This document shows, one piece after another, positions 29,102 to 61,575 of a DNA stretch of 64,000 bases. Source of the DNA: Schmidtea nova (lineage: Eukaryota); the NCBI GenBank assembly GCA_044892505.1, contig CM097882.1, positions 271,374,001 to 271,438,000 of the forward strand, written 5' to 3'. Every line of letters starts with the position of its first letter. Within the stretch, counting starts at the first letter, position 1. The translations under genes were made by a program, and so were the position numbers. The notes under the pieces are model-generated. The model was not told the origin of the DNA and did not search any database. It saw only the letters and a program-made list of their open reading frames with translations.

Positions 29102-31780
29102 CAGAGCTCCGCAACCTTTTCTCACCCGCGGCACACCTAAAGACTTAAAAAAATTTCGCGGCACACCACAAACAAAAATATTTTAAAATTTACGTGATAA
29201 GAAATGCACAAGCAGAAAATGTATTTTTTTTATTCGATAAATTTATTATCACCGTTAATAAATATTTTTTATTTATAACTATAACTAATATGAACAATCA
29301 CTAATGGGATACCTGTGCTTGTTTTAAGGAACATAATAGTTTTATATTGGGCTCAATATTTGAAAGAGCAACTCGAAGTTCTTGGTCAAGGCCCTTCAAG
29401 CACGACCGCTTATCATTTTTTATTAAAACTAGAGTTGAAAAACTTTCTTCACATATGTACGTGGTTGAAAATGGGAGCAGAACTTCAATAGCCTTTTCGG
29501 AAATTCGACGATATTCTTCCTTAACCGCAATCCAAAACGTATCCAATGAAACGTCGGAAAATTTTATTCTTAGCGTCCCATCGTTCCTCAAGTCGAAAAA
29601 TTCGTCTCGAATTTCAAGGGAAAGAGCTACTGTAGAATTTTCGGCATTCGATGAAAAAGGATTTCGAATCCAATCGTATTGGTCTGTATTAATTATGTGA
29701 AAGTATTGGTGAAATTTCTGTTGTAGCAATGTTAAATGTTGTTCGGCCAAACGCAATATGATCTGCTTGTTTTTTCCTGCTTGTGCAATCCTTCCAATCG
29801 TCTGGTTGGTTCTTTGGTACATTTCTAGTGATCCTTGTTGTAACTCCGATTGCCAAAGATCAAGTTTCTGTTTGAATCCGTTCAATTTGTCGGAGCATGT
29901 CAACAAATTTTCATTTCGCCCTTACATTTTTTTATTAAGTTCATTCAGGTGTTCAAATATGTCAGCCATATAGGCAAGTTTGGTCATCCAGTGATTATCT
30001 TGTAGGAGCTTGTGTAGTTCGGGCACATTTTGATTCAATAGAAAATCACTAACCTCTTCGCGAAGCTCAAATAGTCGTGCTAGAACTTTACCTCGGGACA
30101 ACCAGCGTACTTCTGTGTGAAGTAATAAGGATTGATATTCCGATCCCATTTCTGCGCAGAGTATCCCAAAAATTCGCTAATTCAAGGCTTTTGATTTAAT
30201 TAAATTTATAATGCTGATGCATTCATTCATTGTTGCCAATAGTTCCGAAGGTAAATTTTTAACCATCAAAGCTTCTCGATGTATGCAGCAATGTGTAATT
30301 TGTATTGCCGGATTTTGTCGCTTCACACATGAGACAAACCCCTTTTTATAACCCATCATTGCCGCAGCGCCATCCGTGCAAACACTCATGCAATTGCTCC
30401 ATTGAATACCATAGGTTTTGAAGAACTCATCAGTTACTTGAAAAATTTCCTCACCGGTAGTCCGCTCTGGAACTTCTTTGCAAAACAAATAATGATCTTT
30501 TATGGACTCCTCGTCAACGAAACGTACAATACATATTAGTTGTGCTCGGTTTTTAATATCGGTTGATTCGTCAATCTGAAGAGAAAAATTATCCGTCATT
30601 TTCAATTTTGTAATTAATGTTTTTAAAATATCGCTTGACATATCATCAATACGTCTTTTAACAGTATCAGCTGATAACGAAACTTTACTGACTTCATTAA
30701 TTTCATTAGGCCCAAACATTAATCGAATAATTTCCATGCATGTTGGTTTAATAAGGGTTTCGCCAATTGTATGTGGTTTTTTCTGACGTGCAATTAATTT
30801 TGCAACGTGGTAACTAGCTTCTAACGCTTTGTCAGAAATTGTAACGGACGATCTCATAAATTGCCTCTGTTTTAAATTTTGATTTAAAAGCCGCTGAAAA
30901 TATTGTTTGTCCTTGTTGGCGCAATTGGGATGTTTTGATTTTAGATGGCGAATCAGTTTACTTGGCACCATTGCCTCGTTGGAAAGCTGTTCTCTGCAAA
31001 TTACGCATTCTGGTTTCGGAGCCGCTTCTTCACCACACCATGAAAATCCGTATTGAATATATTCTGCATTGTATTGCCTTTTCATTATCTTCGGTCTTTT
31101 TACATCATTGCTCGTGCTGGGTTCATCATCATTTGTCGATAAAGTTGAACATTCTTTACGCAAAAACTTGTCCATATTTAAAATTATATAAAGTAAATAT
31201 GAATAAAATAATTTTATTATTACACGCCAGGTACAAATATTATTAGTAATCGTAAAATATTTTAAATGTTATTTTAATTGTAATATTTATATATTAAAAA
31301 TTATTCAAATTCAATATTTAGAATTGAGCGCTAGTCAAGTTATTTAGAAAAATAATTATTTGAATACTTACATTAATTTTTATCTTCTAAATTCACAAAA
31401 TCACAGAGAGATGAGTACACTATAAAAGCTAACTTACGAATGAAAATTTAAAATCATCATCTGATTCAATAAAGTAATGGATCAGTTGTCCGAAGTCAAC
31501 GAAAACAAATTTCTCTAAAATTTCTTGTATTTATTGTTCAGGCTGTAAAACTTGGTAGCACAACATAAGACAATAAATTTAAATGTGAACAACCTGAAAT
31601 GTAATTTTTTAACCCATGTTTATTGACCGAATATTTTGTCAACAACGCAATTATTTGTAAACAAGATAGATATAAGCATAACGCACGTGTCCGTCATAAA
31701 CCCTATATTTTTTTCTCGGATAGGCATTGCGCCGCGGCACACCTAGCATCGCCTCGCGGCACACCGGTTACGGAGCTCTG
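29102..31780 (-). mobile_element. Full-length hAT/Buster DNA transposon, 2679 bp
   Basis: TIRs CAGAGCTCCGCAACC / GGTTACGGAGCTCTG (14/15). Perfect 8 bp TSD ATATAGAT with central TA. CGCGGCACACC subterminal motifs at both ends. Confidence 0.96.
29301..31175 (-). pseudogene. Buster/ZBED5-like transposase, 624 codons, two in-frame stops
   Basis: BED finger (CVIC...HLKSKH), IDESTD, CTDGA, HCCIH, EVRWLSRG and LLPFSTTYICEESFS. The three ORF pieces share one frame, split by TAG (30177) and TAA (29922). Confidence 0.93.
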
Positions 31781-32285
31781 ATATAGATTATAAATGTTCT
31801 ATTCTATTCTATTCTTCTTTCTATTGAATGCAAATGCGAATTAAATTAAAAGGCACCATAGTATTCCTTTGTGAAAGTTAATATTATTTCAATCATAGTT
31901 CCTGTGGGCGCAGGGGCGCTGTGCGACAGGTTCGTCTAGAGTGTCAAATACTCTGGCGCCAGCCCTGCAAGTATTTAGTTGCATCTGTGTGCGCACTTGT
32001 TCATTTTTTTGGGCTCGCGCCTGTGTGGGTAGATTCTTATTATTTGCGTCTGTGTTCGAGTTCGGTTTTTTGTTCGATCAATTAAATTGTAATTGGTCAA
32101 CCTTTCGTGAGATTCTGTTAATTGGAATTCTATTTTGAAACATTTGTTTATTGGAATCAATTTGAATTATTTAGTAGTTATATTTTTTTAAAAGAATTTG
32201 AAATTTGCTTGGTGGTTTTAAAATAATAAACGTTTTGGGAATCGAATTAGTGTTTTATTTTGGTCTCTATTAGTTAGAAATAAAG

Positions 32286-33990
32286 ATGATAATTTTTTCA
32301 ATCGAAAAAATAAGAGCTCTTATGGAGAAAAAGCAGTGATGAGCTGCCAAACATTTTACAACTGGTTCTATAAAACCAGAAACTAAAAATCGTTTTATTT
32401 TAATAAAATATCATTTTATTTGAATAGATTTTTATTTATTTTTTTTAAAAATTATTATAATAATTTCCAAATGATTTCATTATTTTCATTAATATATTTT
32501 TTGGCGCATTTCGAATCCTGGTATCATTAGCTGAATTGTGATTCCTCAACCAAGTTTTGACATATTCTCCAGCATTCCATGATTCAAATGGTGGTCCAAT
32601 CATATTAATACTCATTAAACTAGAAATATGTTCTACTAAAAGATTAGCTCTTCTTTTTTCACAAATAATATTCATTAATGAGAATCCTCGTTCGGCCTCT
32701 GATGAACTTATAGCAATGGTGTTAATTTTATTTTTAGCTTTTTGAATTGTTTCTATTTCAGATATTTTTCCTTCAATTACATTTTGAACATAATCTCTGA
32801 AATCATTAATGGGAATTTCGTATCTAATTATTTCATTTAAATTTTTCAATTTTTCTTCTCCCAAAATCCACGGACAAGTAATTTCTTCCAAATTCCAATC
32901 AGCTTCAAGTAAATTAAATAATTCGGCAATGTCGTTATTTTTTTCTTTTTTTGTCATTCTTATATGTCTACAATTTAACATTCGGGAATTCATTTTATCA
33001 ATTATTGTTTCAATAAATTTTTTTCCTGGGAGATTTTCAAATTTTTTATTTTCCACAAAAGGAATATCTGCAAATGCAGGTGATGACAACATTTCTTCAA
33101 CTTTTTTTCAAATGTTTAGTGAAAGAAATCTCAACGCCAACTTTGCAATGAAAATATTTTAAATTTTAAATTTATTTGTTGTTTTTATATATAGTGTCAC
33201 CTATTAATTAGGTATCAACAAAATTAATTTGTTGATTCCTAATTAACAAACGGTTCTATAAACTACAAAAAATTTAACAACCGGTTCTATAGAACCGGTG
33301 CGAACCGGCTACAGCTCATCACTGAGAAAAAGGGAAACATTCGCGATATGAGTGTCATAGCTCAAGTTGATCATGGAAAGTCTATTTTAACAGATTCGCT
33401 AGTAAATAAATCTGGTATCATAGCAGGAACTGAAACCAGCGAGGCTAGATTTACAGCCACAATAAAAGACGAACAAGAAAGATGTATAACCACAATATTT
33501 ACAGCTATTTCCATGTGCAATGAAATGGCTGAAGACAATTTGGCCACTGTCAAATTTTTTCAACCTGTAGCTTTAAGTGAAGATGGGAAAACTGACGAAA
33601 AAGGATTTCTAATAAATTTAATCGATTCTCCTTGTCACGTTGATTTCAGCAATGAAGTGGTAGCAGCATTGCGAGTTACTGATGGTACATTTGTTGTTGT
33701 GAATTGTGTTTCCGAAGTCAACGTTCCAACAGAGACCTTATTGCGACAGGCTATGGCTGAACGAATAAACCGGTGTTGTTTATGAATAAGATGGATATGG
33801 CAGTTCAAGATTTACAGAGCGAACCGAAAGATTTATATCAGAAATTTCAAAGAGTTATTTAAATTGTCAATGTTGTCATAGCACAATATGGTGAATTGGA
33901 AGGACCAATGGGAGATATTCAAGTCACACCTGAAAACGGCAATGTTAATTTCGGATCACGAATGGGCCTTTGCTGTTAAAAACTTTTGCC
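32286..33990 (+). pseudogene. EEF2: eEF2 pseudogene, 3'-truncated, split by a hAT insertion
   Basis: MIIFSIEKIRALMEKK | [61 protein letters not shown]1 and G3 motifs are mutated, frameshift near 33770, no introns visible and homology ends near 33990. Confidence 0.92.
32334..33324 (-). mobile_element. Internally deleted hAT transposon, 991 bp, retaining the transposase C-terminus (32445-33092)
   Basis: Perfect 13 bp TIR CAGTGATGAGCTG. TSD AGAAAAAG / AGAAAAGG. hAT dimerisation motif ISSSEAERGFSLMN. Confidence 0.9.
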
Positions 33991-37700: not shown

Positions 37701-40304
37701 TCTTTTTATTTTTTTGTGTAAATATTTCAGAAAACAATTATTTATTAAAAAGATTTTAAAAGGCTGTGTAGAATGTTCACTTTTTTAAAATTATAGTTCT
37801 AATAATTATTATATTAGTAAATAGTTTTTTAAAAAGTCCCTCCTTCACTTTTTACATAAATATTAAGAAAAGTACATAACATTTCAAAATATACCAACAA
37901 CTTCAATAATGCCAGAATTCACATATAAAAGGTTAACGTACCAAAAGTAAATTTTCTATTATAAATCAAACTCACTTTGAAAGGCAGGACGATCCTGAAT
38001 GGTCTGTTAGACGGACTCAATCAGTATAAATACTGAACCGAAAATCAGTGAGATATACCGAATTTTGTGAACTAGTCTTCAGGTCGACTTTACTGATCTT
38101 GAATTATTAATTTGGAAACTTTCGTTAGAACGAACCTTTGAGGATCGATAATTAAATTTTATTTTGTTGTATTAAATGTTATATGCTCCCATGATATTAT
38201 TCAATAATATATTATTTCATAATGTTGATTTTATGACCAATTTAGTAAAGTGTCCTCTGTAGCTCACGCTGCGAGGTTTCTATCCATCTCCTAGGGGTTT
38301 CTTAGCTCCGCAAGATAATGAGTACATTTAACAACAATGCTAACATGCAACTTTGTAACAATAGATAGCTAAAATGATTTTTGATAGTTTCAGGAGGAGC
38401 ACTGTAAATAGGAGGTTTCGGTTAGAAATTCATAGATAATTTTTTAGACATCACTGCACTGGAATGCATTGGATAGTGCCAAGGGCCATAAGGTTCGTAG
38501 CTAAATGGAAATTTTATGAGGGCAGAGTATTGATGAAAGTCTAAATTCGTCTAGGAATCATGCAATACATTTCTTAGGTTGATAATAGGCTCATTCGCAT
38601 TTTATACACTATTGTCGTAAAAGGAATAATCGAATACCTGTTGGGGACCCAATTAATTATCATTAATACAAGTAAGGGAGGATTGACGAGTTGGACGGAG
38701 GCGCTTGGTTTATTTTTTACAGTAAGATAGTAAAAATTTCCTTTTGCAAATAAAACGAGAAACGTCGTCATTAGCGCAACTTTCGTAGCTCGAGGTAATG
38801 ACGAAAGGTGTGTAGGCCAGCCAGCGGTAAATGGAAAGGTCATGTGTACAATTTTCGGGATTTCAATTTAGGGAACCAAGGACGGGTAAAAAAGATTCGA
38901 CATATCTCCACCAGACAGTAGCGTATGTGGATGCAAGTCAGTCATTGAGGCGGACGTCGATAATTATTAAATTCACCTATATGGAATTTTACAGAAATGC
39001 AATAAACCTGGCTGGAAGAGAAACAAAATCAAAATACACGACGATATCAGCATTCATTCTCAATCTGGATGAGCACAAAGGACGAAATATGGCATCATGT
39101 GGGATTCATTGTCCAATTCCAATGGGATCCACGTATTCACCACAATACGCTAGTTTACTGATCATCATCAAGAACAAACTGCAGCGACTAATTTATTGGG
39201 GCTACATTTCCCAATCTGAAATCCATGCACTTGTGTTGGTGTTGCTTCGCCCTCCTTGGTCACTCCGAAAACTTCAGAAAGTGAAATTTGATAGATTATC
39301 AAAATCGATAATGCGACAAAAACCCATCCGACTTGGACTACAAATTCAACTGATTTTTGCGTGGAATTCCACGTTATGCTTCGACTAAAAAATAATCATG
39401 TTGAGTGTATCAAATATATGTCTTCTTTCTTTGTGCGAAGTTGTCCGATTTAGTGAATGAATATAGGAATTTTCAGATGATTGACTGTTACTAAGTAAAA
39501 TTTAGTTTTGTTTATAATTCTATTTAAATAAAGAGTTAACTTCATGTTGAATAGAAGTATCTATATCATTTCAGTGTGTCAAAATATCAGGGAACTCGTG
39601 ATGCAATTACAAAGGCTTGAAATACTCAGAAAGGTCATGAACGAGAGATCGAAAACTGTAAGGCTCAGGTAATCAAAATCAGTACCTGCGTCAAACTCTG
39701 TTTACGCTGGTTTAAATGAAAACAGATTAGGCTCACGGAAAGAGCCAAACGAGCCGTCACCGAAACACAATAAGAGCTCGAGGCAACATAAATAGAATTA
39801 CGAAAATTCCGTAACTCGGTCACTTGATCGTTGGTTGAGAAAGAGTTAAAGGCTTGCATCCGACCCATCACGTTGCAACAATACACCGATCAATTAAATT
39901 TGACGATTTTATTGAAAATTAAATTATTATTTTATGTCAAATTTAAAAAAAAATTTAAATAAATTTATTTTATCACAAAATGTTTACTCTAAAAATAAGA
40001 TTTTATTAATTTACTAAAATTTGATAAATTTTTATTTGGTGGGTTTTTTGATTGTCAATATAACTTTGACGTTGCCCTGGCTCCCATCAACAACTCAACA
40101 CATAAAACATTAGTCAAAACAATCTTGTTGCCCGTCACAATGTAACGTTGGTAGTGCAACAAATGGGTAGATGTATGCAAACAGTGATCGTCTATAAATC
40201 GAAAATATGATTGACCGAACATTACAGTGGGTATCAAAAATATTATATATATATATATATATATATATTATCATAATTATCTTTTTTCACCTTTGATCTT
40301 TTTT

Positions 40305-40485
40305 TATTATTATTATCAATAATTCTCATAATGACTATAGATCAAATTATTTTATAAACAATAACACAATATTTCGGCACAGCCTTTATCAAGTGTGTAC
40401 ACACTTGATAAAGGCTGTGCCGAAATATTGTGTTATTGTTTATAAAATAATTTGATCTATAGTCATTATGAGAATTATTGATAAT

Positions 40486-40492
<7 letters not shown>
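40305..40492. repeat. Perfect 188 bp palindrome (94 bp arms, no spacer) flanked by (TA)n
   Basis: Checked base by base, centre between 40398 and 40399 (GTGTGT|ACACAC). Confidence 0.95.
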
Positions 40493-40521
<29 letters not shown>

Positions 40522-41667: not shown

Positions 41668-42729
41668 TGTTAGGGTTCGAGATCAAGGGATCTCGGGTTT
41701 TTGTAATTAAATATTATAAGTAAATAAATAAATATAAATAGCAATTAAGAATTACTATAAATAAATAGATAAATAGTAATAGTAAATAAATAATTACTAT
41801 AAATAAATATAGATTAAATATAGTAATAATTAAATAGTATATAATAAATATAGTAATAAATAAATACATGATACATTTAAATAATAATAATAAGTTATAT
41901 ATAGTAATAATAAATTACTTTAAATAAAAATATAATAGATATTTTTAAAGGTCATGATTAGTATGACCACCACCGCTTTATTTTCAACGTAGTAGTAAAC
42001 CTACTATCGCTTAAAAAAATTATATATATACTGATTGCAAAATCAGTTGAGGAGAAAAATTAATTTTTGAGCAGAAGAATTACGAGAAGTTCAGAGCAGA
42101 ACATAAGTGTTTACAGAATAGTGAATTTGAGAAGTTTAGTTCAAAGTTAAATTTGCGTGGAGAGAATAATTTTACAGAATTTCATTTGTGATAATTTTCC
42201 GAAATTGGAATAATCTTTGAGCAAATTATTAGCTGGTAAATTTTCTAGTTTGTTTTAATTCTATAAATCGATCACGGGGAAATAGTTATATTACTATTTT
42301 TCCCCTTCAGTAAAGTCGTTAAATAATAAATTATTAGAAGGGAAATTATTAGGTCACAGTGACAACCATTTCTGGGTTGTCACTATCGCGATTAAACTAC
42401 CGGGAATCCCTCGTCTTTTGTCCTTTCATTTAGTCGGAGCTGTTGAGCCTTTTAGGTCCAGCTTTCGTTCTTAAACTCTGAGGACGGTTTGTATAACCGA
42501 TTTTCTAACTTTTGCTTTGCAGCTATTTTATTATATTGTACATTGTTATACATATTTCACAATAAATTTTATTAAAACGAATTAGTTTTGTATTCTTTAC
42601 ACCCAACCTAAAACATATATTTTATTTATAATTAATAAGCGGATTATCGTTTGGAGTCCGATAATCAAATTAAAGTTTTAAATATATATACTTTCTGTGT
42701 TCGTCGTAACCACTGATACGAACCGAACA
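41668..42729 (+). repeat. 5' LTR
   Basis: Direct repeat of 55563-56624, with five substitutions seen by eye. AT-rich low-complexity U3, TATA-like run at about 42021, TCAGTT initiator-like motif at about 42045 and AATAAA at about 42561. Confidence 0.97.
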
Positions 42730-42732
42730 TTT

Positions 42733-42750
42733 TGGTGAGCCCGGCGTGAT
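42733..42750 (+). promoter_or_regulatory. Primer-binding site, tRNA-Trp
   Basis: TGGTGAGCCCGGCGTGAT matches 16/18 positions of the standard Trp PBS TGGTGACCCCGACGTGAT, 3 nt after the LTR. Confidence 0.85.
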
Positions 42751-42821
42751 ACAATTATTATCAGTGGGCATATTGTCATATATACAAAATAGCTCCTAAA
42801 AAGTTAAAAGTTGTGGAGGAC

Positions 42822-45800
42822 ATGGCTGAAGAGAATAATGTTTTTGCTAGATATCCCGCTTTACCTGTCAAGGCATTTAGCGGAGATCCAGGAGAATTTC
42901 CGGAGTTTATGTCAGAGTATTATCAGATGGCAAAGGCCTATGGGTATCCAGATGCAATAATGATACAAAGACTGCCAATTTACCTTAAGGGTATGGCAAG
43001 GGAAAATTACAACGATATTATGGCGTTACCAGCAGCAGATAAACCAGGTACATGGGAAAAGATGAGAGAATCACTAACGGCTAGAATATTACCGGGAGAT
43101 TCAAGTAGAATTTTCCGACAACAATTTTATCACAGGAAGCAGAATGCAAATGAACATGTAGGAGAATTTTCCTATCAATTATTGTTATTAGCAGAAAGAG
43201 CATTTGGACTCAGAACTACCTGGAATGATGCAACTAAAGCTATGGTTAAAGACCAATTATTAGCTGGATTCACAAATGTTATGAGAAATGCATTGATTCT
43301 CCACACGGGAGATGATTTTTGGGAATTAACAAGAAAAGCTGTCGTAATCGAAAGCAGCTTAGAAAAGGCTACCTCATTTATGGTAAATAATGAGAAACCA
43401 GCAATTGAATGTTTTAACTGCCATAAGAAAGGGCACATATCAAAAGATTGCCACAGTAAGAAGGTAGCTGATACTCGTAGGGGTATTCAGTGTACTAAAT
43501 GTGGTATGAATAATCATAGTGTTGAGAACTGTAGAGTCACGAACTTGCAGTGTGATAAATGCAAACGCAGAGGGCATGTGGCTTCCGTTTGTAGAGTTAA
43601 AATTCTCCCCACGAATGGGAATTTTAATATAAAAAGGGATGATGTTAATTCATCAGGAAAGATAAAATGTCACGGATGTGGAAAATTCGGGCATATTCTG
43701 AGGTCGTGTCCTCAAAATCAGAGTAATAATACGAATAATAGGACTACCAATAGTGGTAATATCAGCAAGCCAAAAACTACGTTCATGGTCAATCACGATA
43801 AAGAATTGACGTATTTGCAACAACTGGAAATGGAAATCCAGGAGGAGAAAAATCGATTAGCACGGCTAATGGATCGAGATGATACAGTTTTTATGATTTC
43901 AGCTGAGAAAAATCATGCTCACACAGATGAGCGAGGAACAGTTTTGATGAATACAATTGAAGAAATAAATGAGACTCACACAGTTGGGCAAGAGACAGTT
44001 TTTATGATTTCAGCTGAGAAAAATCATGCTCATATGGATGGGCGAGGAACAGTTATAATGAATCCCATTGAGGAAAGCGATGATGCTCACACAGTTGGGC
44101 AAGGAACAGTTTTGATGATTTCAGCTGAGAAAAATCATGATGCTTACACAGACGAGCAAGGAAATAGTGAACTCATGGATTCCAGCAGCGAGAATCATGA
44201 GGTAATAGAATCAGAAACAAATTCTGATAATGATGACGAACCCAGTATGAGTACCATACTGAGCGAGTTCGACCAGGCTTTGTTCAAGGAAACAAAGGCC
44301 AAGAAAGGGTCAGATACCCTAGCAAAATGTTTAAAACTGGTGGATTCCAGATATGAGTATCAGCAGAGACTGACTCGAGAATTAGAGAAATTATCACAAG
44401 GTGATATCAAGAATAGTGAAATTGGAAAGATATTACAGTTAATATCTCAGGTCGAAGATGATCCAAGGTATCATAGCGACATACATAAAATCCTACGAAA
44501 GATAGGAACTGCAATGGAACATGAATGGGATCTTCAGGATTCGCATTTAAACATAAAACTTCCTCAGGAGCAGGAGTTTAACATCGACATGAATGTAAGA
44601 TGTCGAACAGATAAGTTGTCAGATACAGTGATGAAATTGAAACTTAATAGATATGATTTTTATCTATATGGAGAAAAGTTAGTAGTTGGGGAAACACTAC
44701 TACAAAATGGTGTATTACCAGGAAGGGTAACGAAACTCACAACGAAACTGACAGGAATATCGGTCCCAGTAGTGGATCAAGACAGTGTGTTTCTACTCAC
44801 ACAAATGGAAATTGCACAGTTGGAGGAAGTCCAACAAATAGAGCAACGTCTGAAGATAGAGTTGCAGAAATCTCCGAGGGATGCAGAAACAATCAAGGAA
44901 ATATTAGACTGGATGTTGGTATTGCGCATACCAGTAGAATCATTGGAGAATATAATTCCTATTCTACTACCTGTAGCAAAGGAAACTAGTTCATTTCAAA
45001 CGGAAATAAAAATGTTAATGAGGAAAAATGGAACAGCAATACGTCATCAAGCACATCGACAAGGCATGATAACTTTAGACCTTCGAATATCGGGAAAAGA
45101 ACCCATGACGAGATTATATCGCTGTTTTAGCAAAGTGATAACGTTGAGAAAAGATTTAATAGATACTGGGCAGACTACCGGTATATTCTTGATTATGATT
45201 CATGGAGGGCAAGTGGATGATGATGAATATTTAGTAGATGTGGGATGTCTACCATTTGAAACGACAACAGTAGCAATCATTCCCGTAGAGCCACCTGAAT
45301 CTCAATGGTCAGCATTACGGTTACCAGATGAAATGGTCACTGGTAATGTTGAAACACAACCATTTAATGTAGATATCGATGCCGATAATCACGGAGAAGA
45401 GGAAATCAGACTCAATAATGAGGAAACTAACGTGGGAGCTTCAAATTCTCGGGCGGTAGAAACTGTCAGGCCAGCATGGCAGATAAAGAAAGATAGGCGA
45501 GGAAGGCCTAGGAAAGATCAAATGAAACCTCCACCAACGGAGCAATTAAACCAAGAAACCATTAAACAGGTTCAGATGAAAACCCTGTCAGGAATAGCCA
45601 GGGATGTTGATATGAGAGACGAGGGTGTACATATACCAGAAAAATCTCTGACATGGAAGAGATTAAAACAGATCATAGGAATATTAAAGCCGGAATGGCA
45701 GATCACTCGGATTAAAGGAATTCAAGTGGATAAAGTGACACAGTCAATCGCGAAGACGATGAGGAGATTACCTAAAGGGGTACCGCAAAACGAGATACAG

Positions 45801-48356
45801 AATATGTTAGAGACACTCATACAAGATGGGTTATCTAAAGGAAAAATAGTGACAGCATTATCTATGTTGATTCAAGATGCCTTAGCCCGCGCAGGCAATG
45901 AGAAGAAACTTATTAATCGAGAAATAGACCAGATCACGGAGATAACGGAGCATTATCTCGGAACGTGGATGAGTGAAAATAACTTCTGGGAAGAGGAGAA
46001 ACATAAACTACGATATGAATTCGTGGAAAAGGCTATGAATAACAACCACCTCGGAAATGGAGGAATGGGGAATATGACGAATATGATATTAATGTTTTTA
46101 GTAATGATGGGAATAATGAAACAGACAAACACAATGACAGCGTTTGATTGCAGTGATCCAAAGTTAGCTCGGATATATTCGCTAGTAGATGCAATTGAGT
46201 GCAAAGAGGCATACCCAGAGAAAGTCCAAACAGGAGAAAAGGTCGAATACTATGTTTATCAAGAAAGTGAATTCTTCAGAACTAAGATAAGAGAATGTAG
46301 AGTCCAAAGAGCGACATTTGAATATTATTGTGGTTCACACAGCTATACAGCCTTTCTATCAGCCACTCTAATACCCAGACCTGTCAACATATTGCCAGAA
46401 GATTGTCTTGACGCCTTTCGAAAAGGTACTTTAAGAATCGATAACGAGGTAACCATCGCCGCGGAAGTAGGAAAAACATTGGGAGTAACCATTACACGAG
46501 GAGGATCAATCGGATCAGATGGTACCTGTTCGGGAAGAAAGAAAACTCGCGGATCGGAGTTGGTAAGTTTTGTCGTAGATATTGAGGACTATTCAATCGA
46601 ATTAAGAGAATACGAAGGGACGTTCGATGTATTATCAGGAAGATTAATGGCACACCCTCAGTGCCTTGCGAAATTTGGAAGCTGTAGAACAGGGGTCATT
46701 ACATTATTATACGATCAAATACTAGACCATTGCGAATTGTCATTACTAAAGAAAATTAATTTCCATAAGTTGAACGGGACAAAGTATCGAGATTTACCCA
46801 AAAGAGAAAGAATTTGGGATAAAGAAAAGACGTTGAAAAGGATCAACAAACAGCAAAAAGAGGATATTAGTGAGGAAATCACACCTCTAGTATTAGTATC
46901 AGAAGATAAGAAAGATGCAATCAGATTTGTCAGAAAAGATAAGAAGACAAAATGCGGAAAAGTGGTGTATGAGACCAACTATAAAGGATTATATTTGTCA
47001 AAAACATTTATCCAAAAGGCCAAGAATATTCACAGCCAGGATATCAAAATCACGAACTATATAAATAATAAAATAGATTATTTATATCATGATCTGCAAG
47101 GACAAATGCAGGAAATGTATCAGGAAGTAATACTTAATGATTGCAAACTAAATCGCGAAATAGTTCGAAATCGGTTAGCGATATCAATCGTGAATCCGGA
47201 TCTAGTGACACCTATGTTGCTAGAAGATGGAATGTTTGGCAGAATTATGGGGGAAGCTATATACAGCTATCAATGTCAACCCATAGAGGTACAATTAACA
47301 CGGTACAATGAATGTACTCTAGAATTACCAGTGTCATATCAAAACAAAATACGATTTGTAATGCCAGTAACGAGGAGACTTTTGGATGAAAAACAAAAGC
47401 CTCAACCTTCAATTTGCAATCCAGCAATATCACCGTTATACAAGGTAAATGATAGATGGATCTCATTACCTGACAGAAAACCATCTAATAGAAAGGTGGA
47501 AACATTGGAAGTCACGAAACTCGAGGAAAACATGGAATTTAAATCACTCGATGAATTATCACAAGGAGGAATTTACACTCCAGTAGACATTGAGGAGGCA
47601 AGACAGACGTTGCTATTTCCTCAAGTAAGAGAAAGAGGTATCACTGAAATCATAAGAACAATTTACCAAGCAAACGAAATGAGACCAGATTACAATTTAT
47701 TATTCGGTCCAGATCATTATAAAGAAGCAGCTAAAAATGTGATGATGAAAATATGGGGAAGGTTTACCAATTTTGGTATATTCGTGGCAGGCTGCTCAGG
47801 AATATATGCAATATTCGTAATTCTAAAGTTAATAATAACACAATTAATTTCCACATACAGCATATTCAAAATCGGTGGATGGTCTTGGAAGTTGATACTA
47901 GGATTGTGTCCTATGTGTGCGGAATTTGCATTGTTTAAACATCATCGTAAAGAAATAAAGACAATCAAACAGAGAAGCTTGGTTAAACACGAGATTATTG
48001 GAATCGAAATGGAGGGTAATACAAGTTATCGGGACGATAACAATTCGGAAGGAGGAGGTAATGGAGACTCTCTTAATACAGTTCAGAGGCAAAGTAGAAG
48101 TCGAAAAAGAAACTACAATAAAAAACCGAATCATCAATTAAGGAAAATGAAATATCGGGATTATCAACCACCTTACGAAGCGACAAAACAGATTTTCGAC
48201 AAAAGTATGATTTCAGAAGATGAATACGATAGTGCAGACCAGAAATTTGCAATCAATACAGCATCACCTAGATTGAAAAGAAGCCCAAGATATATGCAAT
48301 TGCCATATCTTAGAAGCTTACCAACAGCGCCAAAGGGGGAATCGCCAGAGTTTTAA
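42822..48356 (+). CDS. Gag-Env polyprotein, 1844 aa: capsid, 4 CCHC knuckles, 37-aa repeats, two Ubl-like domains, AT-hook, signal peptide, chuvirus-like glycoprotein, TM, basic tail
   Basis: Uninterrupted ORF. Knuckles at 43410-43709, RGRPRK at about 45498, hydrophobic signal at about 46086-46120, AFDC...YYCGSHS...CG...NKIDYLY...CKL...GEAIYSYQC...ELPV cysteine pattern and TM at about 47772-47870. Confidence 0.93.
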   Translation: MAEENNVFARYPALPVKAFSGDPGEFPEFMSEYYQMAKAYGYPDAIMIQRLPIYLKGMARENYNDIMALPAADKPGTWEKMRESLTARILPGDSSRIFRQQFYHRKQNANEHVGEFSYQLLLLAERAFGLRTTWNDATKAMVKDQLLAGFTNVMRNALILHTGDDFWELTRKAVVIESSLEKATSFMVNNEKPAIECFNCHKKGHISKDCHSKKVADTRRGIQCTKCGMNNHSVENCRVTNLQCDKCKRRGHVASVCRVKILPTNGNFNIKRDDVNSSGKIKCHGCGKFGHILRSCPQNQSNNTNNRTTNSGNISKPKTTFMVNHDKELTYLQQLEMEIQEEKNRLARLMDRDDTVFMISAEKNHAHTDERGTVLMNTIEEINETHTVGQETVFMISAEKNHAHMDGRGTVIMNPIEESDDAHTVGQGTVLMISAEKNHDAYTDEQGNSELMDSSSENHEVIESETNSDNDDEPSMSTILSEFDQALFKETKAKKGSDTLAKCLKLVDSRYEYQQRLTRELEKLSQGDIKNSEIGKILQLISQVEDDPRYHSDIHKILRKIGTAMEHEWDLQDSHLNIKLPQEQEFNIDMNVRCRTDKLSDTVMKLKLNRYDFYLYGEKLVVGETLLQNGVLPGRVTKLTTKLTGISVPVVDQDSVFLLTQMEIAQLEEVQQIEQRLKIELQKSPRDAETIKEILDWMLVLRIPVESLENIIPILLPVAKETSSFQTEIKMLMRKNGTAIRHQAHRQGMITLDLRISGKEPMTRLYRCFSKVITLRKDLIDTGQTTGIFLIMIHGGQVDDDEYLVDVGCLPFETTTVAIIPVEPPESQWSALRLPDEMVTGNVETQPFNVDIDADNHGEEEIRLNNEETNVGASNSRAVETVRPAWQIKKDRRGRPRKDQMKPPPTEQLNQETIKQVQMKTLSGIARDVDMRDEGVHIPEKSLTWKRLKQIIGILKPEWQITRIKGIQVDKVTQSIAKTMRRLPKGVPQNEIQNMLETLIQDGLSKGKIVTALSMLIQDALARAGNEKKLINREIDQITEITEHYLGTWMSENNFWEEEKHKLRYEFVEKAMNNNHLGNGGMGNMTNMILMFLVMMGIMKQTNTMTAFDCSDPKLARIYSLVDAIECKEAYPEKVQTGEKVEYYVYQESEFFRTKIRECRVQRATFEYYCGSHSYTAFLSATLIPRPVNILPEDCLDAFRKGTLRIDNEVTIAAEVGKTLGVTITRGGSIGSDGTCSGRKKTRGSELVSFVVDIEDYSIELREYEGTFDVLSGRLMAHPQCLAKFGSCRTGVITLLYDQILDHCELSLLKKINFHKLNGTKYRDLPKRERIWDKEKTLKRINKQQKEDISEEITPLVLVSEDKKDAIRFVRKDKKTKCGKVVYETNYKGLYLSKTFIQKAKNIHSQDIKITNYINNKIDYLYHDLQGQMQEMYQEVILNDCKLNREIVRNRLAISIVNPDLVTPMLLEDGMFGRIMGEAIYSYQCQPIEVQLTRYNECTLELPVSYQNKIRFVMPVTRRLLDEKQKPQPSICNPAISPLYKVNDRWISLPDRKPSNRKVETLEVTKLEENMEFKSLDELSQGGIYTPVDIEEARQTLLFPQVRERGITEIIRTIYQANEMRPDYNLLFGPDHYKEAAKNVMMKIWGRFTNFGIFVAGCSGIYAIFVILKLIITQLISTYSIFKIGGWSWKLILGLCPMCAEFALFKHHRKEIKTIKQRSLVKHEIIGIEMEGNTSYRDDNNSEGGGNGDSLNTVQRQSRSRKRNYNKKPNHQLRKMKYRDYQPPYEATKQIFDKSMISEDEYDSADQKFAINTASPRLKRSPRYMQLPYLRSLPTAPKGESPEF

Positions 48357-51300
48357 AAGACATCAGGAGAAGGCAAGTCAAGTTATGCTTTAACCATACC
48401 AAGAAACAAAATGTACATTTCTAAACATCAACAAATTCTCGACAAAGAGGCTCGAGAAACAGGTAAAAGCATATCATTATCGTTAGAAAATGAAGGGAAA
48501 CTGTATCCTATCGAGTCGTTAGAAGCAATAAAAGCAAAATTCAAGGAATATAATCCAAAATTGAGTGATACCGAACAAGATGAAGCAGAGAAATTCAGAG
48601 CAAATACCATCGGGATAACGCATGCTACTATTTTGATGGCAAATGGGGTGAACTTGGATAAGAAACCCATGATAAAGATAAAAATAAACTGACACACAGT
48701 TAATGCAGTGATAGATTCAGGAGCAGACGGCACCATCATAGAGGCAACACTATTAAATCAAAAAGAATTGGAATCAATGGAAACCTCTAGAGTTTCGCTA
48801 ACAGGTGCTACAGGCACATCATTGAATATTATCGGTACTCTAGTTTGCAACATCAAGCTATGTGACCAAGAATTTCGTCATGATATTATAGTCATGAGAA
48901 CTTGTCCAGTAGAATGTCTACTAGGAATGGATCTTTTAAGAAGATTAAAAGGAGTTGTGTTCGATTGTGCTACCGGATTGTTAGTTAGATCAATCGGTAA
49001 GAAAAGAAAAGTTTATAATGATGATACAGTTTTCATCGATCATACGATGATAATACCACCAAGAGCAGAAACAGTATGTTTCGTGTCCACTAGCGAACAG
49101 TGGGAAGGAGAAGTTGTATATTCGAACCAGATGAAAGGTTCTCAGCAAAATATAATCTACCAATTACGCATAGCGTTGGTAAAGTTGAAAATGGCAGAAT
49201 ACCAATTCGGGTAGCCAATTTAGATATAAAACCATTAAAATTGTACCCAGATACAAGAGTAGGGAGAGTATCAAAGTCGGATCAATTACCGATTGGGGGA
49301 TCTGTCCTGACAGTGAAGGCAGAGAATAGAGAACCAGACATCGAGTACTATGATGCGCCAACGGCAAATAGTAAAGCTCTTTCACGAAGAGAGAATATTC
49401 AAGTAAACATGTTGTTAAGAAAATATGATCAAGTATTCGCCAAGCACGAATATGATCTGGGAAAGACGAACTTGTTGGAACATGAAATTGTTCTTAACAA
49501 TACGAAACCAATAAAACTGAGACCGTATCGAATTCCGTTTAGCTTGGAAGAACCTGTCGATAAGCAGGTAAAACTGATGTTAAAACATAACATCATCAGG
49601 CATAGTAAATCACCATACCAGTCACCAATGATAGTGGTGGCAAAAAAGGATGGAACAGTACGACTATGCAACGACTATCGAATGGTAAACGAAGCAACTT
49701 GCAAGGATAGTCACCCATTACCATTATTGGATTACATTTACGGACGCATGAGAAATTCAAAATATTTCTCAGTGATGGATGCTCAGAAGGGATTTTACCA
49801 AATCAAGTTAAAAGAGGAGACAATACCAATTACGGCTTTTTCTACAAGCCTTGGACACTTCGAATATACAGTAATGCCATTTGGTCTTACAGGAGCGCCG
49901 GCAACGTTTCAAAGAGCCATGAATCTAATGTTAATGGATGTTCATCATGCAATGGTATACATAGATGACATCATTGTATTTTCTCCAGATTTGGAAAAAC
50001 ATTTAGAACATTTAGAGGACGTATTCAAAAGGTTAATTAATGCAAATCTTAAGGTAAAACCATCAAGATGTAAATGGGCCGAATCAGAAGTAGTCTATGT
50101 CGGTCACATTATCTCGAAGGATGGAGTAAAACCAGATCCAGCAAATGTTGAGAAAGCAAAGAATTTTCCAGAGTCAAAGACAGTCAAACATATTAAAGGG
50201 TTTTTGGGCTTAGTGGGATATTACAAGAAGTTCATCAGAAACGTTTCGGCCATAGCGTTTTCTCTGACACAATTAGAGGGAACAAATGTCAAATTTGTAT
50301 GGGGAAAAGAGCAACAGGGAGTATTTGATATGCTAAAAAGGATGCTCGTGGAACCTCCCATATTACGATTTCCAAATTTTTGAAAAAAAACTTTTGGTCA
50401 TGACAGACGCCAGCACTCGGGGTATTGATGCTGTGTTAGGTCAAAGAGATGACCTACGCGATGAATATGCCATAGTGTAAGCTAGCAGAGGATTGAAACC
50501 GCATGAAAAGAATTATGTAGTTATTGAATTAGAGGCATTTGCAATCGTTTATGCTATCAATCAATTTAGGACGTATTTATGGGGTCGAAAGATCATTGTG
50601 TATACGGATCATAGACCATTACAGTGGTTAACAAAGCATACTATGGATACATCAAAATTGGTTAGATGGGCATTGATCTTGCAGCCGTACGACATCGAAA
50701 TACATTACCGAAAAGGACATCAAAATGGGAATGCAGATGCATTTTCTCGAATGGACCAGGGTGATGAAGCAGAAGACGTTAAGGAAGGAAGATTAGAAGG
50801 AACAATCTTCGCACTTACAAGAGAAGCAAACAGACTCGCGGATTTAATGGCAGCACAACAATCGGATGAAGAGATAAACCAAATCAGACAGGCTTTAGAA
50901 GCAAAGTTCATACCGACGGAATTTAATAAATATTGGGAGAAAAATCGAGACAAATTTATCCTAGAAGAAGGATTAGTCAAATATGTGGATGTAAGGGATA
51001 ATGTCATAATGGTCCCTAAGAAATATCGGGAAGCCTTGATGTTACAATATCATGATGGAGCACTGGGAGGGCATTTATCTTCCAGGAAAACATTGTCAAG
51101 GTTGAAGCAGAAATATTTCTGGCCGACAATCAAACAAGACGTACAGGAATGGTGTCAGACATGTAAGATCTGTATCACCAGGAGAAATACGGGGAAGAAA
51201 CCTCATGTGCCAATGAAACCAATGCCAGTACCATCCACACCGATGGAAATGACGGCGATGGATATTTTAGGGCCATTCAAAGAATCAAATAGTGGTAACA

Positions 51301-53093
51301 AATACATATTGGTATTTTGCGATTACTTGACGAAATGGCCGGAGGCTTATCCGATACCGAATCACAAGGCAGATACGATAGCCAGGATTTTCGTAGAGCA
51401 AATTGTTTTTAGGTATGGAGTACCTACAAAACTACTAACAGATAGAGGAGCAGATTTCATGAGTAATCTGTTAAAAGGAATAAATGATTATTTCGACATT
51501 TTAAAACTGAATACCTCTCCATACCATCCACAAACAGACGGATTGGTAGAGAGATTTAACGGAACGCTCGCAAATATGCTAGCATCATACGTAAATTCAG
51601 GGCAAACGGATTGGGATATACATATTCCATCATGCCTATTCGCATACAGAAATGCTGTTCATGAGGGTACGGGACAAACGCCGTTCTATCTCATGTATTT
51701 AAGGCAAAGTAAAATGCCTATAGACTTGTTGTTTTTCCCAAAAGCAACGCAGTATCTAGACCAAGAAGATTACCTCATGGAAATGAGAGAAAGAATGCAA
51801 GAAGCATGGACAAAAGCAGGTCTTAGTATAAAATTCAGTCAGGAAGCGTCGAAAGATTATCATGATAAGAAAGCCAAAGGACATGGCATGTTAGTTGGAG
51901 ATAAGGTGATGTTAGAAAGCCATTATAATAAAAAGGGCTTATCACCTAAATTAATGAGAAACTTCAAAGGACCGTATGAGGTTTTGAGAACCACAGACAC
52001 GAATTTAATCTTGCAATTAGTAGCAAATAGAAAAGCTGAACCAATAATGGTACATGCTAACAGATGCAAGAAAGTTGCGGTCACGGAGAAAGATCCGATT
52101 AAGAAAAAGGAGGATAAAGGGTCAGAACCAGTCTCAGACAGATATCCATTACGATCAAGAAGCGTGCCAAAATCAGTTACGTTTTTGGTAATAATAAGTT
52201 GCCTTATATCCTGTGTAAAGACATTTGTTCCAACAGCGGTACAAATTCAAGATCTCGCATTTAGAAGATCTTTCCAGGAATTTAGAATAATATCATTAGC
52301 TGAAAATGATACCAAATTCAAGTTCTCGTTTTGCGAACGACGTTGTTTCCATTTTACATTGGATTCAAACACAAGAGTGAAAGTCATAAAGGACTTACGA
52401 GCAGAAAAGGAATATTTATTAGATATACTTGTTCAACATTTTATGTTCGGACGATGGTCAGATTTTTCAAAGTCACAATGGAAGCTGAAGACAGCAGATT
52501 TCAAAAGGAAAGTTAGAATAAATATCCAACAAGGTATGATTACCTTCAGCCAACCAAAACAAGGAGTGGATAGAGTAAAGATAGAAATCCATTCCGACAA
52601 GGAAATAGTACAAGAATTGTGGCTAAATGAAGATATTGAGAAACAAAATCTCAAGTGGAACAGCTCAGTGGAGTGGGAAGCTCATATCACTTATATGAAT
52701 AATAAACAAAAGCCCGGAGTCGATGAATGGAATGAGGTATTTTATGAAGTAATCTCTTTGAAATTACCACAATCATCGACGACAACGAAATCGGTTACAT
52801 CAATTATACGGAAAGAAAGTTACGTCATTCATCCTGCAATATGGCAGAGATTGAAAGGATTGAAAATGGTAAAACCAACAGTATCAACAGAAAGCTATAT
52901 TAAAAGTTGTCAGTGTGAAATTAACGAAGTAAACCCCATTACTCACTTGGGAAAATTACCCGTTGGGGTATGGATTATTACGTCAGCAGTATTATCTATG
53001 ATCACTACATTAATAGCAATGGGGGTTTGGATGAAATTATTCTTCAGTCAGGCTATTGAGTCGGTTGATGGGATTATGATGACGAGATTATGA
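48357..53093 (+). pseudogene. pol (PR, dUTPase-like linker, RT, RNase H, integrase) plus in-frame C-terminal membrane protein; four lesions
   Basis: IDSGADGT, RLCNDYR, YIDD, TDAS, ELEAFAIV, YTDH, HHCC, DILGP/TDRG/VERFN and GPYEV. Lesions: TGA 48690, -1 nt near 49108, +1 nt near 50381, TAA 50478. Confidence 0.93.
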
Positions 53094-53207
53094 CAATTAC
53101 AGATAAAATCACATATTTGTATTTATATATATATTAAAATCTATAATCTTGTTGAGCTCCGAGTAGCATTAACTTACAGCATAAGTAGATCCCGTAAATC
53201 GAGATTT

Positions 53208-55268
53208 ATGCATTTCTTTTTAGCCAATATTGGCATATCAGTATATCTGATATTAACGTTAATTATTTTTCTTTCAGATATGAAGCATCAAGTGTCACAA
53301 TACAAGCAGCGTTACAGCACTATCGATGTGCAAACAATACAGAAGGAAAAACTGATTTATCGAAACATCGAAAAAGCGATATCCGCAGAAGCACGGAAAG
53401 GTCGTCGCTATTGGTATTACGGGCACTGCACCGGCATCCCGAACAATTTTAAGTTTCTTGGATCACCTAAGAGACAAATGTGCATAGTCACAATTACCAG
53501 CCGTGAGAACACCCGGTTGACTGAACACATGGCGGAATTTAACAGATCAACATTTACTCACCATCTCCTGATTCACGCGATCAATAAACCCTTTACAATC
53601 TTCATGGCAGGAGCCACAGGACCTATCCTACTTCAACCAGAATCAACTCTAGAAATTAGTAACGGAGATGGCAGAGAAAAGAATATCTCCATCCAATGTG
53701 AAGGATATAATACCATTGTGGTATTAGAGATTTTGGAACCCAGCAAGGCAGTGCAATCATTGTGGAAAAATGAACCTGCCTGGACCTATAATGTGAATGA
53801 GAACGATCTCAAATCATTCAAATCCTTTGTTCGGATGAATCTGCACCCCAATCAAGAAGATAGGTTGTCAATATTTATTGCAGCGCATTACGCAACTTTG
53901 CGAGATTATTTAAAGCCAGCTTTGGTGGCTGTTTCGATAGCAAACTACTGTGGTGATTTAATACTAAACACGGTGGTTACACCCAGAAACCAGGTCAAAC
54001 ATTACCAATCGCACGCGCATGGTATGACCGAAAAAGAAATCATCGGACAATTTGACGGAGAGGATTGCGCAGACCGTATTAGGAAATTATGTGATGGGAA
54101 AATCCTAATAGGTCTCCAAGTCAACGATTTCTTGGAAGCAGTCCAGTTACACCCTCAACGAGTTTTGGGAATTAGAGAACTAGGAGCAGCAAAATGCCTG
54201 GAAGCGAGAGAACTAAAGAAATGTAACGGACATTATCGACTCGCGTATTTATCAAAGTCAATTCTCGAAAAGGAAGAACTAAACCGTTCAGATCTGAAAA
54301 CGGAAAATGACGTGGAAACGACACGTAATATTTACCTTAAACTGAGAGAAGTTTGGGTAGATGACATCACCCCAGGTAATCGTAGTGGGACGATTACATC
54401 AGAAGTCAAAATGGTTCATACAATACAGCCACAAGAAACGAGTAAAAGGAAAGCTATTGAGAGCTTACCCCAGGAACAGCCATTATCAACCAAATTGCAA
54501 AAGATAGTTGAGGAAGAATCACTATCCCCTCCAGCTATATCCTTAGCTGATGAAGACGATTACGCCACCTGCGAAAGCGAGGGTGAGGAACAAACAGAGA
54601 TGCGTTTAACTTTACACGGAGACAGCCGTACAAAGATCGTGCCAGAAAATCCACCAAAGAAAGAGAACAAGCTCTTGGAAAAAGTTACTAAGACTTTTCA
54701 AAAATTGACTTCAGTAGAAAAGTCATTCCCAAAGAAAAGTCAAGAACCTGTTGTAAGGTTACAAGATCTAAAGATCAAGAAGAAAGTACCAAATCTCCTC
54801 TCGACGGAAGACAAAGATTTAATCGAAACAGCATTCGTTCCACCCGATATGGAACAGATTCCTGAGGTTAAGGGCGAACCTATCATTATAAGAGAAGGGG
54901 ATTTCGTTGGAACGGGAAACTCAGCAAAGATACCCCAGGATTTGGACAATGAAGACCCTAGTTTTTGGCAGCGACCAGAGAGAAATTGGGTACCTCGGAT
55001 AAAAGAATACGACGGGAAACCGGTACACCAATCATCAGTTTCAAACTTCCCTTACTATGGCGTATTGGAGGCCAACGGAAAATCATACGTGATTTCTTCT
55101 TTGGTATATAAGGAAGTTGAAACACGTGAAACATTGGTGGTCAGCTATAGACCAGATATAGTGGAAGATCGCATCAGGAACGAACAAGCGCATATTCGCA
55201 AGAGAGCAGCTCAAAACCTATTCGCGAAGGATAACAAGCATTGCTGCTACGTTCAATCCAAGGTCTAG
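53208..55268 (+). CDS. Accessory ORF3 with a degenerate DEDDh (REXO4/ISG20-like) exonuclease domain at about 53859-54356
   Basis: LVAVSIANYCGDLILNTVVTPRNQVKHYQSHAHGMTEKEI...KILIGLQVNDF...ENDVETTRNIY aligns by eye with REX4 ARVSIVN.G....D..VKP...V.DYRT.VSGI...ILVGH.L..D...EDA.....LY. Possible alternative start at ATG 53280 after TTTCAG. Confidence 0.75.
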   Translation: MHFFLANIGISVYLILTLIIFLSDMKHQVSQYKQRYSTIDVQTIQKEKLIYRNIEKAISAEARKGRRYWYYGHCTGIPNNFKFLGSPKRQMCIVTITSRENTRLTEHMAEFNRSTFTHHLLIHAINKPFTIFMAGATGPILLQPESTLEISNGDGREKNISIQCEGYNTIVVLEILEPSKAVQSLWKNEPAWTYNVNENDLKSFKSFVRMNLHPNQEDRLSIFIAAHYATLRDYLKPALVAVSIANYCGDLILNTVVTPRNQVKHYQSHAHGMTEKEIIGQFDGEDCADRIRKLCDGKILIGLQVNDFLEAVQLHPQRVLGIRELGAAKCLEARELKKCNGHYRLAYLSKSILEKEELNRSDLKTENDVETTRNIYLKLREVWVDDITPGNRSGTITSEVKMVHTIQPQETSKRKAIESLPQEQPLSTKLQKIVEEESLSPPAISLADEDDYATCESEGEEQTEMRLTLHGDSRTKIVPENPPKKENKLLEKVTKTFQKLTSVEKSFPKKSQEPVVRLQDLKIKKKVPNLLSTEDKDLIETAFVPPDMEQIPEVKGEPIIIREGDFVGTGNSAKIPQDLDNEDPSFWQRPERNWVPRIKEYDGKPVHQSSVSNFPYYGVLEANGKSYVISSLVYKEVETRETLVVSYRPDIVEDRIRNEQAHIRKRAAQNLFAKDNKHCCYVQSKV

Positions 55269-55550
55269 CAATAAGCTATGACAACTATCAATCAAACAAT
55301 TAGCATTTCGGCTATGTGATCAACAATCCAACTCTTACAGACAGTTATTATTTGATATCGATTGTGATCAACATTACTTATGTATTATGCGTTTTATGAG
55401 ACTCATTTGTTTTATGTGATTTATTTTAATTTTTATTGACCAGGTGCAGTCAATGTATATATATGCATGTGTTGTTATTTTATTTTTTATTTTATGGCTG
55501 CGTAACCTTCTTGTCTTTTCCGCTTTAATTTTCGGGACGAAAATCTTGTT

Positions 55551-55560
55551 AGGGGGAAGA
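55551..55560 (+). promoter_or_regulatory. Polypurine tract
   Basis: AGGGGGAAGA, 2 nt before the 3' LTR. Confidence 0.88.
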
Positions 55561-55562
55561 CA

Positions 55563-56624
55563 TGTTAGGGTTCGAGATCAAGGGATCTCGGGTTTTTGTA
55601 ATTAAATATTATAAGTAAATAAATAAATATAAATAGCAATTAAGAATTACTATAAATAAATAGATAAATAGTAATAGTAAATAAATAATTACTATAAATA
55701 AATATAGATTAAATATAGTAATAATTAAATAGTATATAATAAATATAGTAATAAATAAATACATGATAAATTTAAATAATAATAATAAGTTATATATAGT
55801 AATAATAAATTACTTTAAATAAAAATATAATAGATATTTTTAAAGGTCATGATTAGTATGACCATCACCGCTTTATTTTCAACGTAGTAGTAAACCTACT
55901 ATCGCTTAAAAAAATTATATATATACTGATTGCAAAATCAGTTGAGGAGAAAAATTAATTTTTGAGCAGAAGAATTACGAGAAGTTCAGAGCAGAACATA
56001 AGTGTTTACAGAATAGTGAATTTGAGAAGTTTAGTTCAAAGTTAAATTTGCGTGGAGAGAATAATTTTACAGAATTTCATTTGTGATAATTTTCCGAAAT
56101 TGGAATAATCTTTGAGCAAATTATTAGCTGGTAAATTTTCTAGTTTGTTTTAATTCTATAAATCGATCACGGGGAAATAGTTATATTACTATTTTTCCCC
56201 TTCAGTAAAGTCGTTAAATAATAAATTATTAGAAGGGAAATTATTAGGTCACAGTGACAACCATTTCTGGGTTGTCACTATCGCGATTAAACTACTGGGA
56301 ATCCCTCGTCTTTTGTCCTTTCATTTAGTCGGAGCTGTTGAGCCTTTTAGGTCCAGCTTTCGTTCTTAAACTCTGAGGACGGTTTGTATAACCGATTTTC
56401 TAACTTTTGCTTTGCAGCTATTTTATTATATTGTACATTGTTATACATATTTCACAATAAATTTTATTAAAACGAATTAGTTTTGTATTCTTTACACCCA
56501 ACCTAAAACATATATTTTATTTATAATTAATAAGCGGATTATCGTTTGGAGTCCGATAATCAAATTAAAGTTTTAAATATATATACTTTCTGTGTTCGTC
56601 GTAACCACTGATACGAATTGAACA
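55563..56624 (+). repeat. 3' LTR
   Basis: Direct repeat of 41668-42729, followed by TSD CTTA. Confidence 0.97.
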
Positions 56625-60425: not shown

Positions 60426-61575
60426 GGATCAACCTTTTAATTTAATATTAATATTAATATTAATTAATATTTTAAAATTCATTAATATTTTGCAATATAA
60501 ATTAAAAAATCACATTTAAATATTATATTTAAAATCAAAGTTTAATTAAATTGAAGACCGCATTGAAAAAATCTGCTCTGTTATTAAAATAATAACAAAA
60601 TTCATTAAGAAAGTCCTGTCTTTTTTCTGTTAAAACACTTTTTCTTCGTTTGATTTCTAACTTTAATTCATTGTGGAATGATTCGATAGCTTGAGTGTTA
60701 ATTCCATTCCTTTTATTTATAAAGTCATACTTGTGGCAAACTGTGCTATGATAAAAACTGTATTCATCAAGATTGAAGTATGCTTTATGTTCATATGTCC
60801 ATATTACGCTATTATTGGCCACTTGATTACATATGATAGGCACTATTGTTCTTTCTTTCTTGTTTGGTATTGTTACTGCAAATGCTCTTTCAATATTATT
60901 ATTTACCTCCACAATACACAGTGAATCAGTTCTGTTACTAGGAGCCCGGCCACAATGACTTTTGACCTTATAATTAAGCTTGGTATCATCGATTTGTACT
61001 ATTTTTTCAGGCCCCCTAGTTTAGAATTGCTAAAATCAACTCTAGGTATTTTACTTTTTAACCTCTTTATTACCTTTTCAATTGTTGAATCAGAGGTATC
61101 TAATGCTAATTTGATACTAAAAATAAGCTGCCTTGTAGAATATTTTATAATTATTCTTAAAATCAAAGACATCTTAACAGTTAATCCATCAAAAAAAGAA
61201 CCTTTTCTCACCGATTCATAGACTTTGTACCTTTGACAAGCTGGTGTCATACACCTCCAAACAATTTTGTCTATAGATCTTTTACGATCTACCAATTTCA
61301 TAAAGGTATTACATGTACTGCACACATGTTCATTCTTCAAAAATGAGTTTGTCATCAAAAATAAAGCAAGATTTCTTTCGTCCAGTGTTATGCATATTCT
61401 TTCAAATTCATCAGGAGTCATTTAAAGTATTGAAAAATTGACTATTATTTTAATTAATATTAATGAATTAATATTACTTTTTATTTATTTTCGGGGGTTA
61501 AATTAAAAGGATGATTATTATGGGGGTTAAATTAAAAGGTTGATTATTATGGGGGATAAATTAAAAGGTTGATCC
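60426..61575 (-). mobile_element. Merlin (IS1016/ISXO2-like) DNA transposon, 1150 bp
   Basis: 19 bp perfect TIR GGATCAACCTTTTAATTTA, perfect 8 bp TSD GTTAATTT and tandem TIR-like subterminal repeats at 61495-61575. Confidence 0.93.
60535..61421 (-). pseudogene. Merlin transposase, frameshifted
   Basis: Zn ribbon (CSTC...WRC...C), KLGG, VQIDDT, IWTYEHKAY (catalytic D changed to Y) and NTQAIESFHNELK. 1 nt deletion near 61010. Confidence 0.9.

Follow-up and report, generated by a model that had tools for sequence, protein, structure and literature searches.

A duplicated helical and ubiquitin-like module, with a predicted LEDGF-IBD/TND-like fold, in the Gag-Env linker of a planarian retrotransposon

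The giant Gypsy-like elements of planarians known as Burro carry, as described in the text of PMC6431247, Ubi2/SUMO-like and BCL2 motifs together with an in-frame Env, and GAG-ENV-POL errantiviruses with an HSV/gB-type envelope have been reported in the Platyhelminthes (PMC13524379, main text). Cellular TNDs, for their part, read short motifs of other proteins, which they bind through two pockets and a basic patch; the review passages that describe them mention TFIIS homologs in some viral genomes and contain no word beginning with "transpos" (PMC9987994).

The window, that is, the whole stretch of 64,000 nucleotides of Schmidtea nova DNA that was analysed, contains a Ty3/Gypsy LTR retrotransposon of 14,957 bp (41668-56624, forward strand, as are all its features below) with the target-site duplication CTTA on both sides. 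The 5′ LTR (41668-42729; 1,062 bp, TG...CA) has CTTA just upstream, the 3′ LTR (55563-56624) has it directly after, and the pair differs at 5 of 1,062 bases; the element is young, multi-copy, and envelope-carrying. After the 5′ LTR the sequence has a primer-binding-site-like stretch (42733-42750), which we take to be of the tRNA-Trp type. A single frame (42750-48356) then runs from a Gag capsid region (42822-43373), assigned by its position and its likeness to Gag relatives, through a nucleocapsid with four CCHC knuckles (43404-43718; zf-CCHC, E 7.8e-5), a spacer of 111-nt (37-aa) repeats with candidate protease sites (43881-44147), the two-unit region that is our subject, and a hydrophobic stretch that by eye resembles an internal signal peptide (46074-46142), to a class III fusion glycoprotein of the gB/Monjiviricetes type (46143-47942; PF24664, E 6.2e-90), with a transmembrane segment from about 47772. 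In this copy, three stops (48354, 48690, and 50478) and two frame changes interrupt Pol (PR-RT-RNase H-IN, 48357-52163). The LTRs, the target-site duplication, and the PR-RT-RH-IN order are those of an errantivirus, and the Env of the gB/Monjiviricetes type inside the Gag frame, upstream of the protease, is that of the GAG-ENV-POL errantiviruses.

Beyond the integrase, and in frame with it, lies a second membrane-protein-like region (52164-53093), where a signal-peptide-like stretch is followed by some 250 residues and then by a hydrophobic segment at the C-terminus, possibly a second surface protein, for which the Pfam search gave no match. Before the 3′ LTR there is an accessory ORF with an ISG20L2-like exonuclease domain (53094-55268; E 2.2e-5), whose acidic catalytic motif seems degenerate on visual inspection; sister copies also have ORFs at this position. 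Elsewhere in the window there are near-perfect palindromes with a related core (40296-40501, 103-nt arms; 5002-5120, 56-nt arms), possibly a small non-autonomous element, fragments of a hAT transposase (29301-33107, reverse strand), an IS1595-like DDE transposase (60535-61020, reverse), and another integrase (8634-9284, forward), and host gene exons close by (GTP_EFTU at 33243, NIF phosphatase at 34866, and a kinase at 62548).

Like Burro as its text presents it (PMC6431247), this element encodes one polyprotein with Gag, CCHC knuckles, Ubl, a BCL2-like domain, and then an Env of the mononegavirus type before the protease; the series Gag-Ubl-BCL2-Env-PR in one frame was found. However, it measures 15 kb as opposed to more than 30 kb, the frames of its sister copies are of about 3,450 aa as opposed to 4,873-5,140 aa, Pfam gives no match in it for MATH, BIR, ankyrin, or dUTPase, and it has two Ubls, each paired with a helical domain; the Burro text names neither a TND/IBD-like domain nor an AT-hook (PMC6431247). 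Membership in Burro proper was rejected, given 14,957 bp against more than 30 kb and the lack of an ORF near 5,000 aa. With the Platyhelminthes errantiviruses it shares gene order and Env class, and the nearest of them is Smed_errantivirus_4, whose Env is alike by eye and whose listed span is about 14.9 kb (PMC13524379); the main text of that paper has no occurrence of "ubiquitin" or "exonuclease," and an annotation of the Gag-Env linker was not found there. Among open-access papers other than the first description of Burro (Grohme 2018), searches of the text found neither a retroelement-encoded TND/IBD nor a two-domain helical-Ubl unit. What is already published, as far as the Burro text goes (PMC6431247), is the arrangement of the element together with its cargo of Ubl and Bcl-2 domains, and the new part would be the IBD/TND-like partner of the Ubl, which is supported by the ranking of folds, short of proof.

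The linker was described in the sequence-only reading as a Gag extension with two helical and ubiquitin-like units, and this is what lies between nucleocapsid and Env. Unit 1 has a helical domain of three helices (44343-44528), a shortened and faster-evolving copy, followed by a ubiquitin-like beta-grasp domain (44544-44759); unit 2 has a helical domain of four helices (44799-45047), with the predicted LEDGF-IBD/TND-like fold, followed by a ubiquitin-like domain with a conserved acidic DDDEYL motif (45063-45287). The internal repeat supposed in that reading also held, as the cross-score of the two units was reached by none of 1,000 shuffles; the units are a real duplication, and a chance repeat is rejected. 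An assembly artefact as the source of the region was likewise rejected.

The beta-grasp fold of the Ubls was recovered as foreseen, and so was the missing terminal GG: a C-terminal di-glycine follows none of 16 unit-2-type domains and is also absent after unit 1, so that a conjugatable ubiquitin is rejected. Identity to ubiquitin is about 11%, ESM Atlas scores for the Ubl (0.79-0.82) have the level of a lead, and in the comparison of folds no subfamily stands out, with ties in Z (ISG15, ubiquilin UBL, and Rad60 SLD among the integral Ubls). These integral, non-conjugatable Ubls are like those of the element in having a beta-grasp without GG, whereas the conserved acidic DDDEYL loop is the element's own. 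Single-sequence searches of the region gave nothing against the PDB and no match in Pfam, word-indexed protein searches gave no relatives (weak evidence), and in a viral fold library the matches were Ubl-type or uncharacterised, BVDV polyproteins being among those of the Ubl and none being named TND. The idea of captured host-like modules is supported.

For the helical half of unit 2 the model is a four-helix bundle (pLDDT 81), whose top nine Foldseek matches are all the LEDGF integrase-binding domain, at E 0.5-1.3. The four long helices of LEDGF IBD/TND structures (as given in the texts of PMC9987994 and PMC3185499) superpose on it, with an rmsd of 2.0-2.4 Å on the LEDGF IBD crystal structures, to which no other natural protein comes as close in rmsd and whose alignment takes in 76 of 82 residues; the short alpha3 of the five-helix TND/IBD is missing from the model. 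HEAT/ARM solenoids tie with the IBD by Z. As regards sequence, Pfam PF08711 and PF11467 do not match this half, a profile of the element's helical domain compared by hhalign with host TNDs gives no significant match (Probab 0.38), and the comparison with the host IBD is marginal, 1 and 23 of 1,000 shuffles scoring as high. Because the HEAT solenoids tie by Z and the sequence support is marginal, the half can be called IBD/TND-like, not a proven member, and the model weakly suggests a LEDGF-IBD/TND-like fold. Of the likeness to TFIIS-N/LEDGF IBD proposed earlier there thus stands the first place of the LEDGF IBD in an unbiased fold search; it is weak, with HEAT repeats tying. In the host genome, some 30 TFIIS-N (PF08711) matches were also observed in tandem, about 1.2 kb apart (G000:C1:216191207-216252340), with more PF08711 clusters at C1:28.8 Mb and C2:284 Mb; these arrays suggest expanded host TND gene families.

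The unit is not peculiar to this copy. In the host genome 125 of 1,811 candidates scored, with an identity of 66-100% in 107 of them and of 42-44% in the other 18, and 27 of the 125 matches sit in frames of 3,389-3,453 aa, a length that would be enough to span Pol. It recurs in five families (A-C and D-E) and is also present in other assemblies; in a search of 1.84 billion proteins it was found in 23 of 27 matches, the other four being ubiquitin-repeat proteins. It occurs single or doubled per element, and wherever both Gag and Env are visible it is located between them. Unit 2 is the better conserved between families (dN about 0.3-0.4 vs 0.6-0.9), dN/dS for a non-saturated pair is 0.13, and the variants common to 20 family-A copies number 37 synonymous and 8 non-synonymous: the module is under purifying selection. 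In a tree of 25 units, unit 1 of A/B/C stands apart from unit 1 of D/E, with weak deep branches. Among sequencing runs, none of RNA was listed as containing the element; contigs from two runs of one study cover 30 of 30 bins, which has no bearing on expression.

Downstream of unit 2 there is a basic patch with the AT-hook core RGRP, possibly an NLS (45486-45515). Judged by sequence, this putative AT-hook keeps its core and basic flanks in families A, B, and C at a background identity of about 35%, and the core is also found in several outside relatives (PF02178, E 0.027, in relative P0012); it is missing from families D and E. A basic patch and AT-hook near an IBD-like domain recall the layout of LEDGF in the account of PMC3185499, although the element differs from LEDGF in its 16-21% identity, the lack of the short third helix in the model, the lack of a PWWP, the fusion to a Ubl, its encoding by a mobile element, and the absence of Ile365/Asp366. 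A degenerate Bcl-2-like domain follows (45648-45995), suggested by PDB profile matches and by PF00452, whose matches stay below the curated cut-off throughout (E 0.04-0.08 in the window and 8.5e-5 in family D; BH1 degenerate). Some 27 residues separate its end from the Env signal peptide, and this peptide might also serve it as a membrane tail anchor. Relative P0013 has one unit, an AT-hook, and Env, with no Bcl-2 Pfam match, and several tandem protease-like domains (four PF13975 stretches). Between the units lies a candidate site for the element protease (44781-44807), detected with a motif trained on 12 junction sites picked by eye; of the untrained sites it ranks best in families A and B, a rank that it does not hold among distant relatives.

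The domains, their order, the duplication, and the recurrence under purifying selection having been observed, what could this region do? It would be an accessory linker of the Gag-Env(-Pol) polyprotein, in which two copies of an IBD/TND-like and Ubl module might serve as an adaptor that docks on host proteins of transcription/chromatin and of the ubiquitin system, or as a decoy for them, a reading that we hold tentatively and to which we give a little less than an even chance. Upon co-translational insertion, Gag and the linker would remain in the cytosol and Env would enter the lumen. Env would be split off by signal peptidase, and the element protease would cleave at two points, one behind the nucleocapsid spacer and one separating the two units, releasing a soluble unit-1 piece and a second product, with unit 2, the AT-hook, and the Bcl-2-like domain, for which the Env signal peptide may be a tail anchor. 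The two halves of the module, helical and Ubl, would function together, binding short motifs of host proteins as cellular TNDs do, with the Ubl offering a further surface and the AT-hook, where present, contributing a contact with nucleic acid. Such a cassette may help the element to be expressed or to survive in the face of host silencing, alongside a putative anti-apoptotic Bcl-2 mimic. Planarian Gypsy and Burro elements are PIWI-silenced, as stated in the text of PMC8532177, and this silencing would be a plausible pressure on the elements.

The same topology allows a reading without any host partner. Because the region lies in one frame between the nucleocapsid and the internal signal peptide, Gag is predicted to be anchored at the membrane, and the linker could work in a matrix-like manner, tethering Gag through the Env signal peptide, with the folded units as spacers or as self-assembling layers between capsid and envelope; the presence of the module in all five Env-linked families examined, with greater conservation than its flanks, fits this. 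However, the number of units varies between one and two, and the neighbours are host-interaction modules (Bcl-2-like and AT-hook; in Burro MATH, BIR, and ankyrin, according to the text of PMC6431247), so we consider it unlikely, while still giving it appreciable weight. Less probable again is a reading in which the helical half has no relation to TNDs and is a HEAT-like pair of a generic sort, which would leave the unit as an integral Ubl adaptor to the proteasome, SUMO, or autophagy machinery only: the tie in Z and the marginal sequence tests are what would be expected of it, but the IBD has the lowest rmsd over nearly the whole domain and the host IBD outscores nearly all shuffles. As for the Ubls as cleavage signals for host deubiquitinases or as conjugatable modifiers, ubiquitin folds do sit within a viral-type polyprotein, and pestivirus polyproteins carry ubiquitin inserts. 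The lack of GG after all 16 unit-2-type domains and unit 1, with so low an identity to ubiquitin, largely refutes this, and we give it almost no credence.

There remains the role of the chromatin. Lentiviral integrase is tethered by LEDGF, which has AT-hooks and an NLS besides its IBD, as far as PMC3185499 describes it, and the element, with the LEDGF IBD as nearest fold and an RGRP core kept in three families, could have captured an IBD-like domain that binds its own integrase, held on chromatin by the AT-hook, so as to steer or boost integration. Yet the loop between alpha1 and alpha2 lacks the residues that contact lentiviral integrase, Ile365 and Asp366 aligning to a Lys-Ser that varies between families; LEDGF binding is specific to lentiviruses in that same account (PMC3185499), and families D and E have no AT-hook. 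Neither is an AT-hook-guided insertion into AT-rich sites supported, as insertion flanks have a GC of 0.29-0.31 in family A (n = 18) and 0.20-0.29 in family D (n = 17), a difference that is not significant at any flank width in a small sample (a usable LTR start in 18 of 20 family-A and 17 of 20 family-D copies, one family-D flank being derived from a neighbouring LTR). We judge this explanation to be improbable. The nuclear or chromatin targeting proposed from the sequence alone gained no support: families D and E have the units without the AT-hook, insertions of the AT-hook family show no higher AT content in their flanks, and the predicted topology may hold unit 2 at the membrane by way of the Env signal peptide.

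TNDs are known as host scaffolds that are hijacked by lentiviral integrases, and an element-encoded IBD-like domain, retained beside a Ubl in divergent families, would turn the usual mimicry the other way round. If the reading in which the element brings its own LEDGF were true, a clade of enveloped retrotransposons would carry, within its own polyprotein, the chromatin tether for which lentiviruses depend on the host. The analysis also defines a unit of 170 residues that is suitable for expression and testing, and it gives a sharper form to the suggestion that elements of the Burro type may interfere with ubiquitination and apoptosis in the host.
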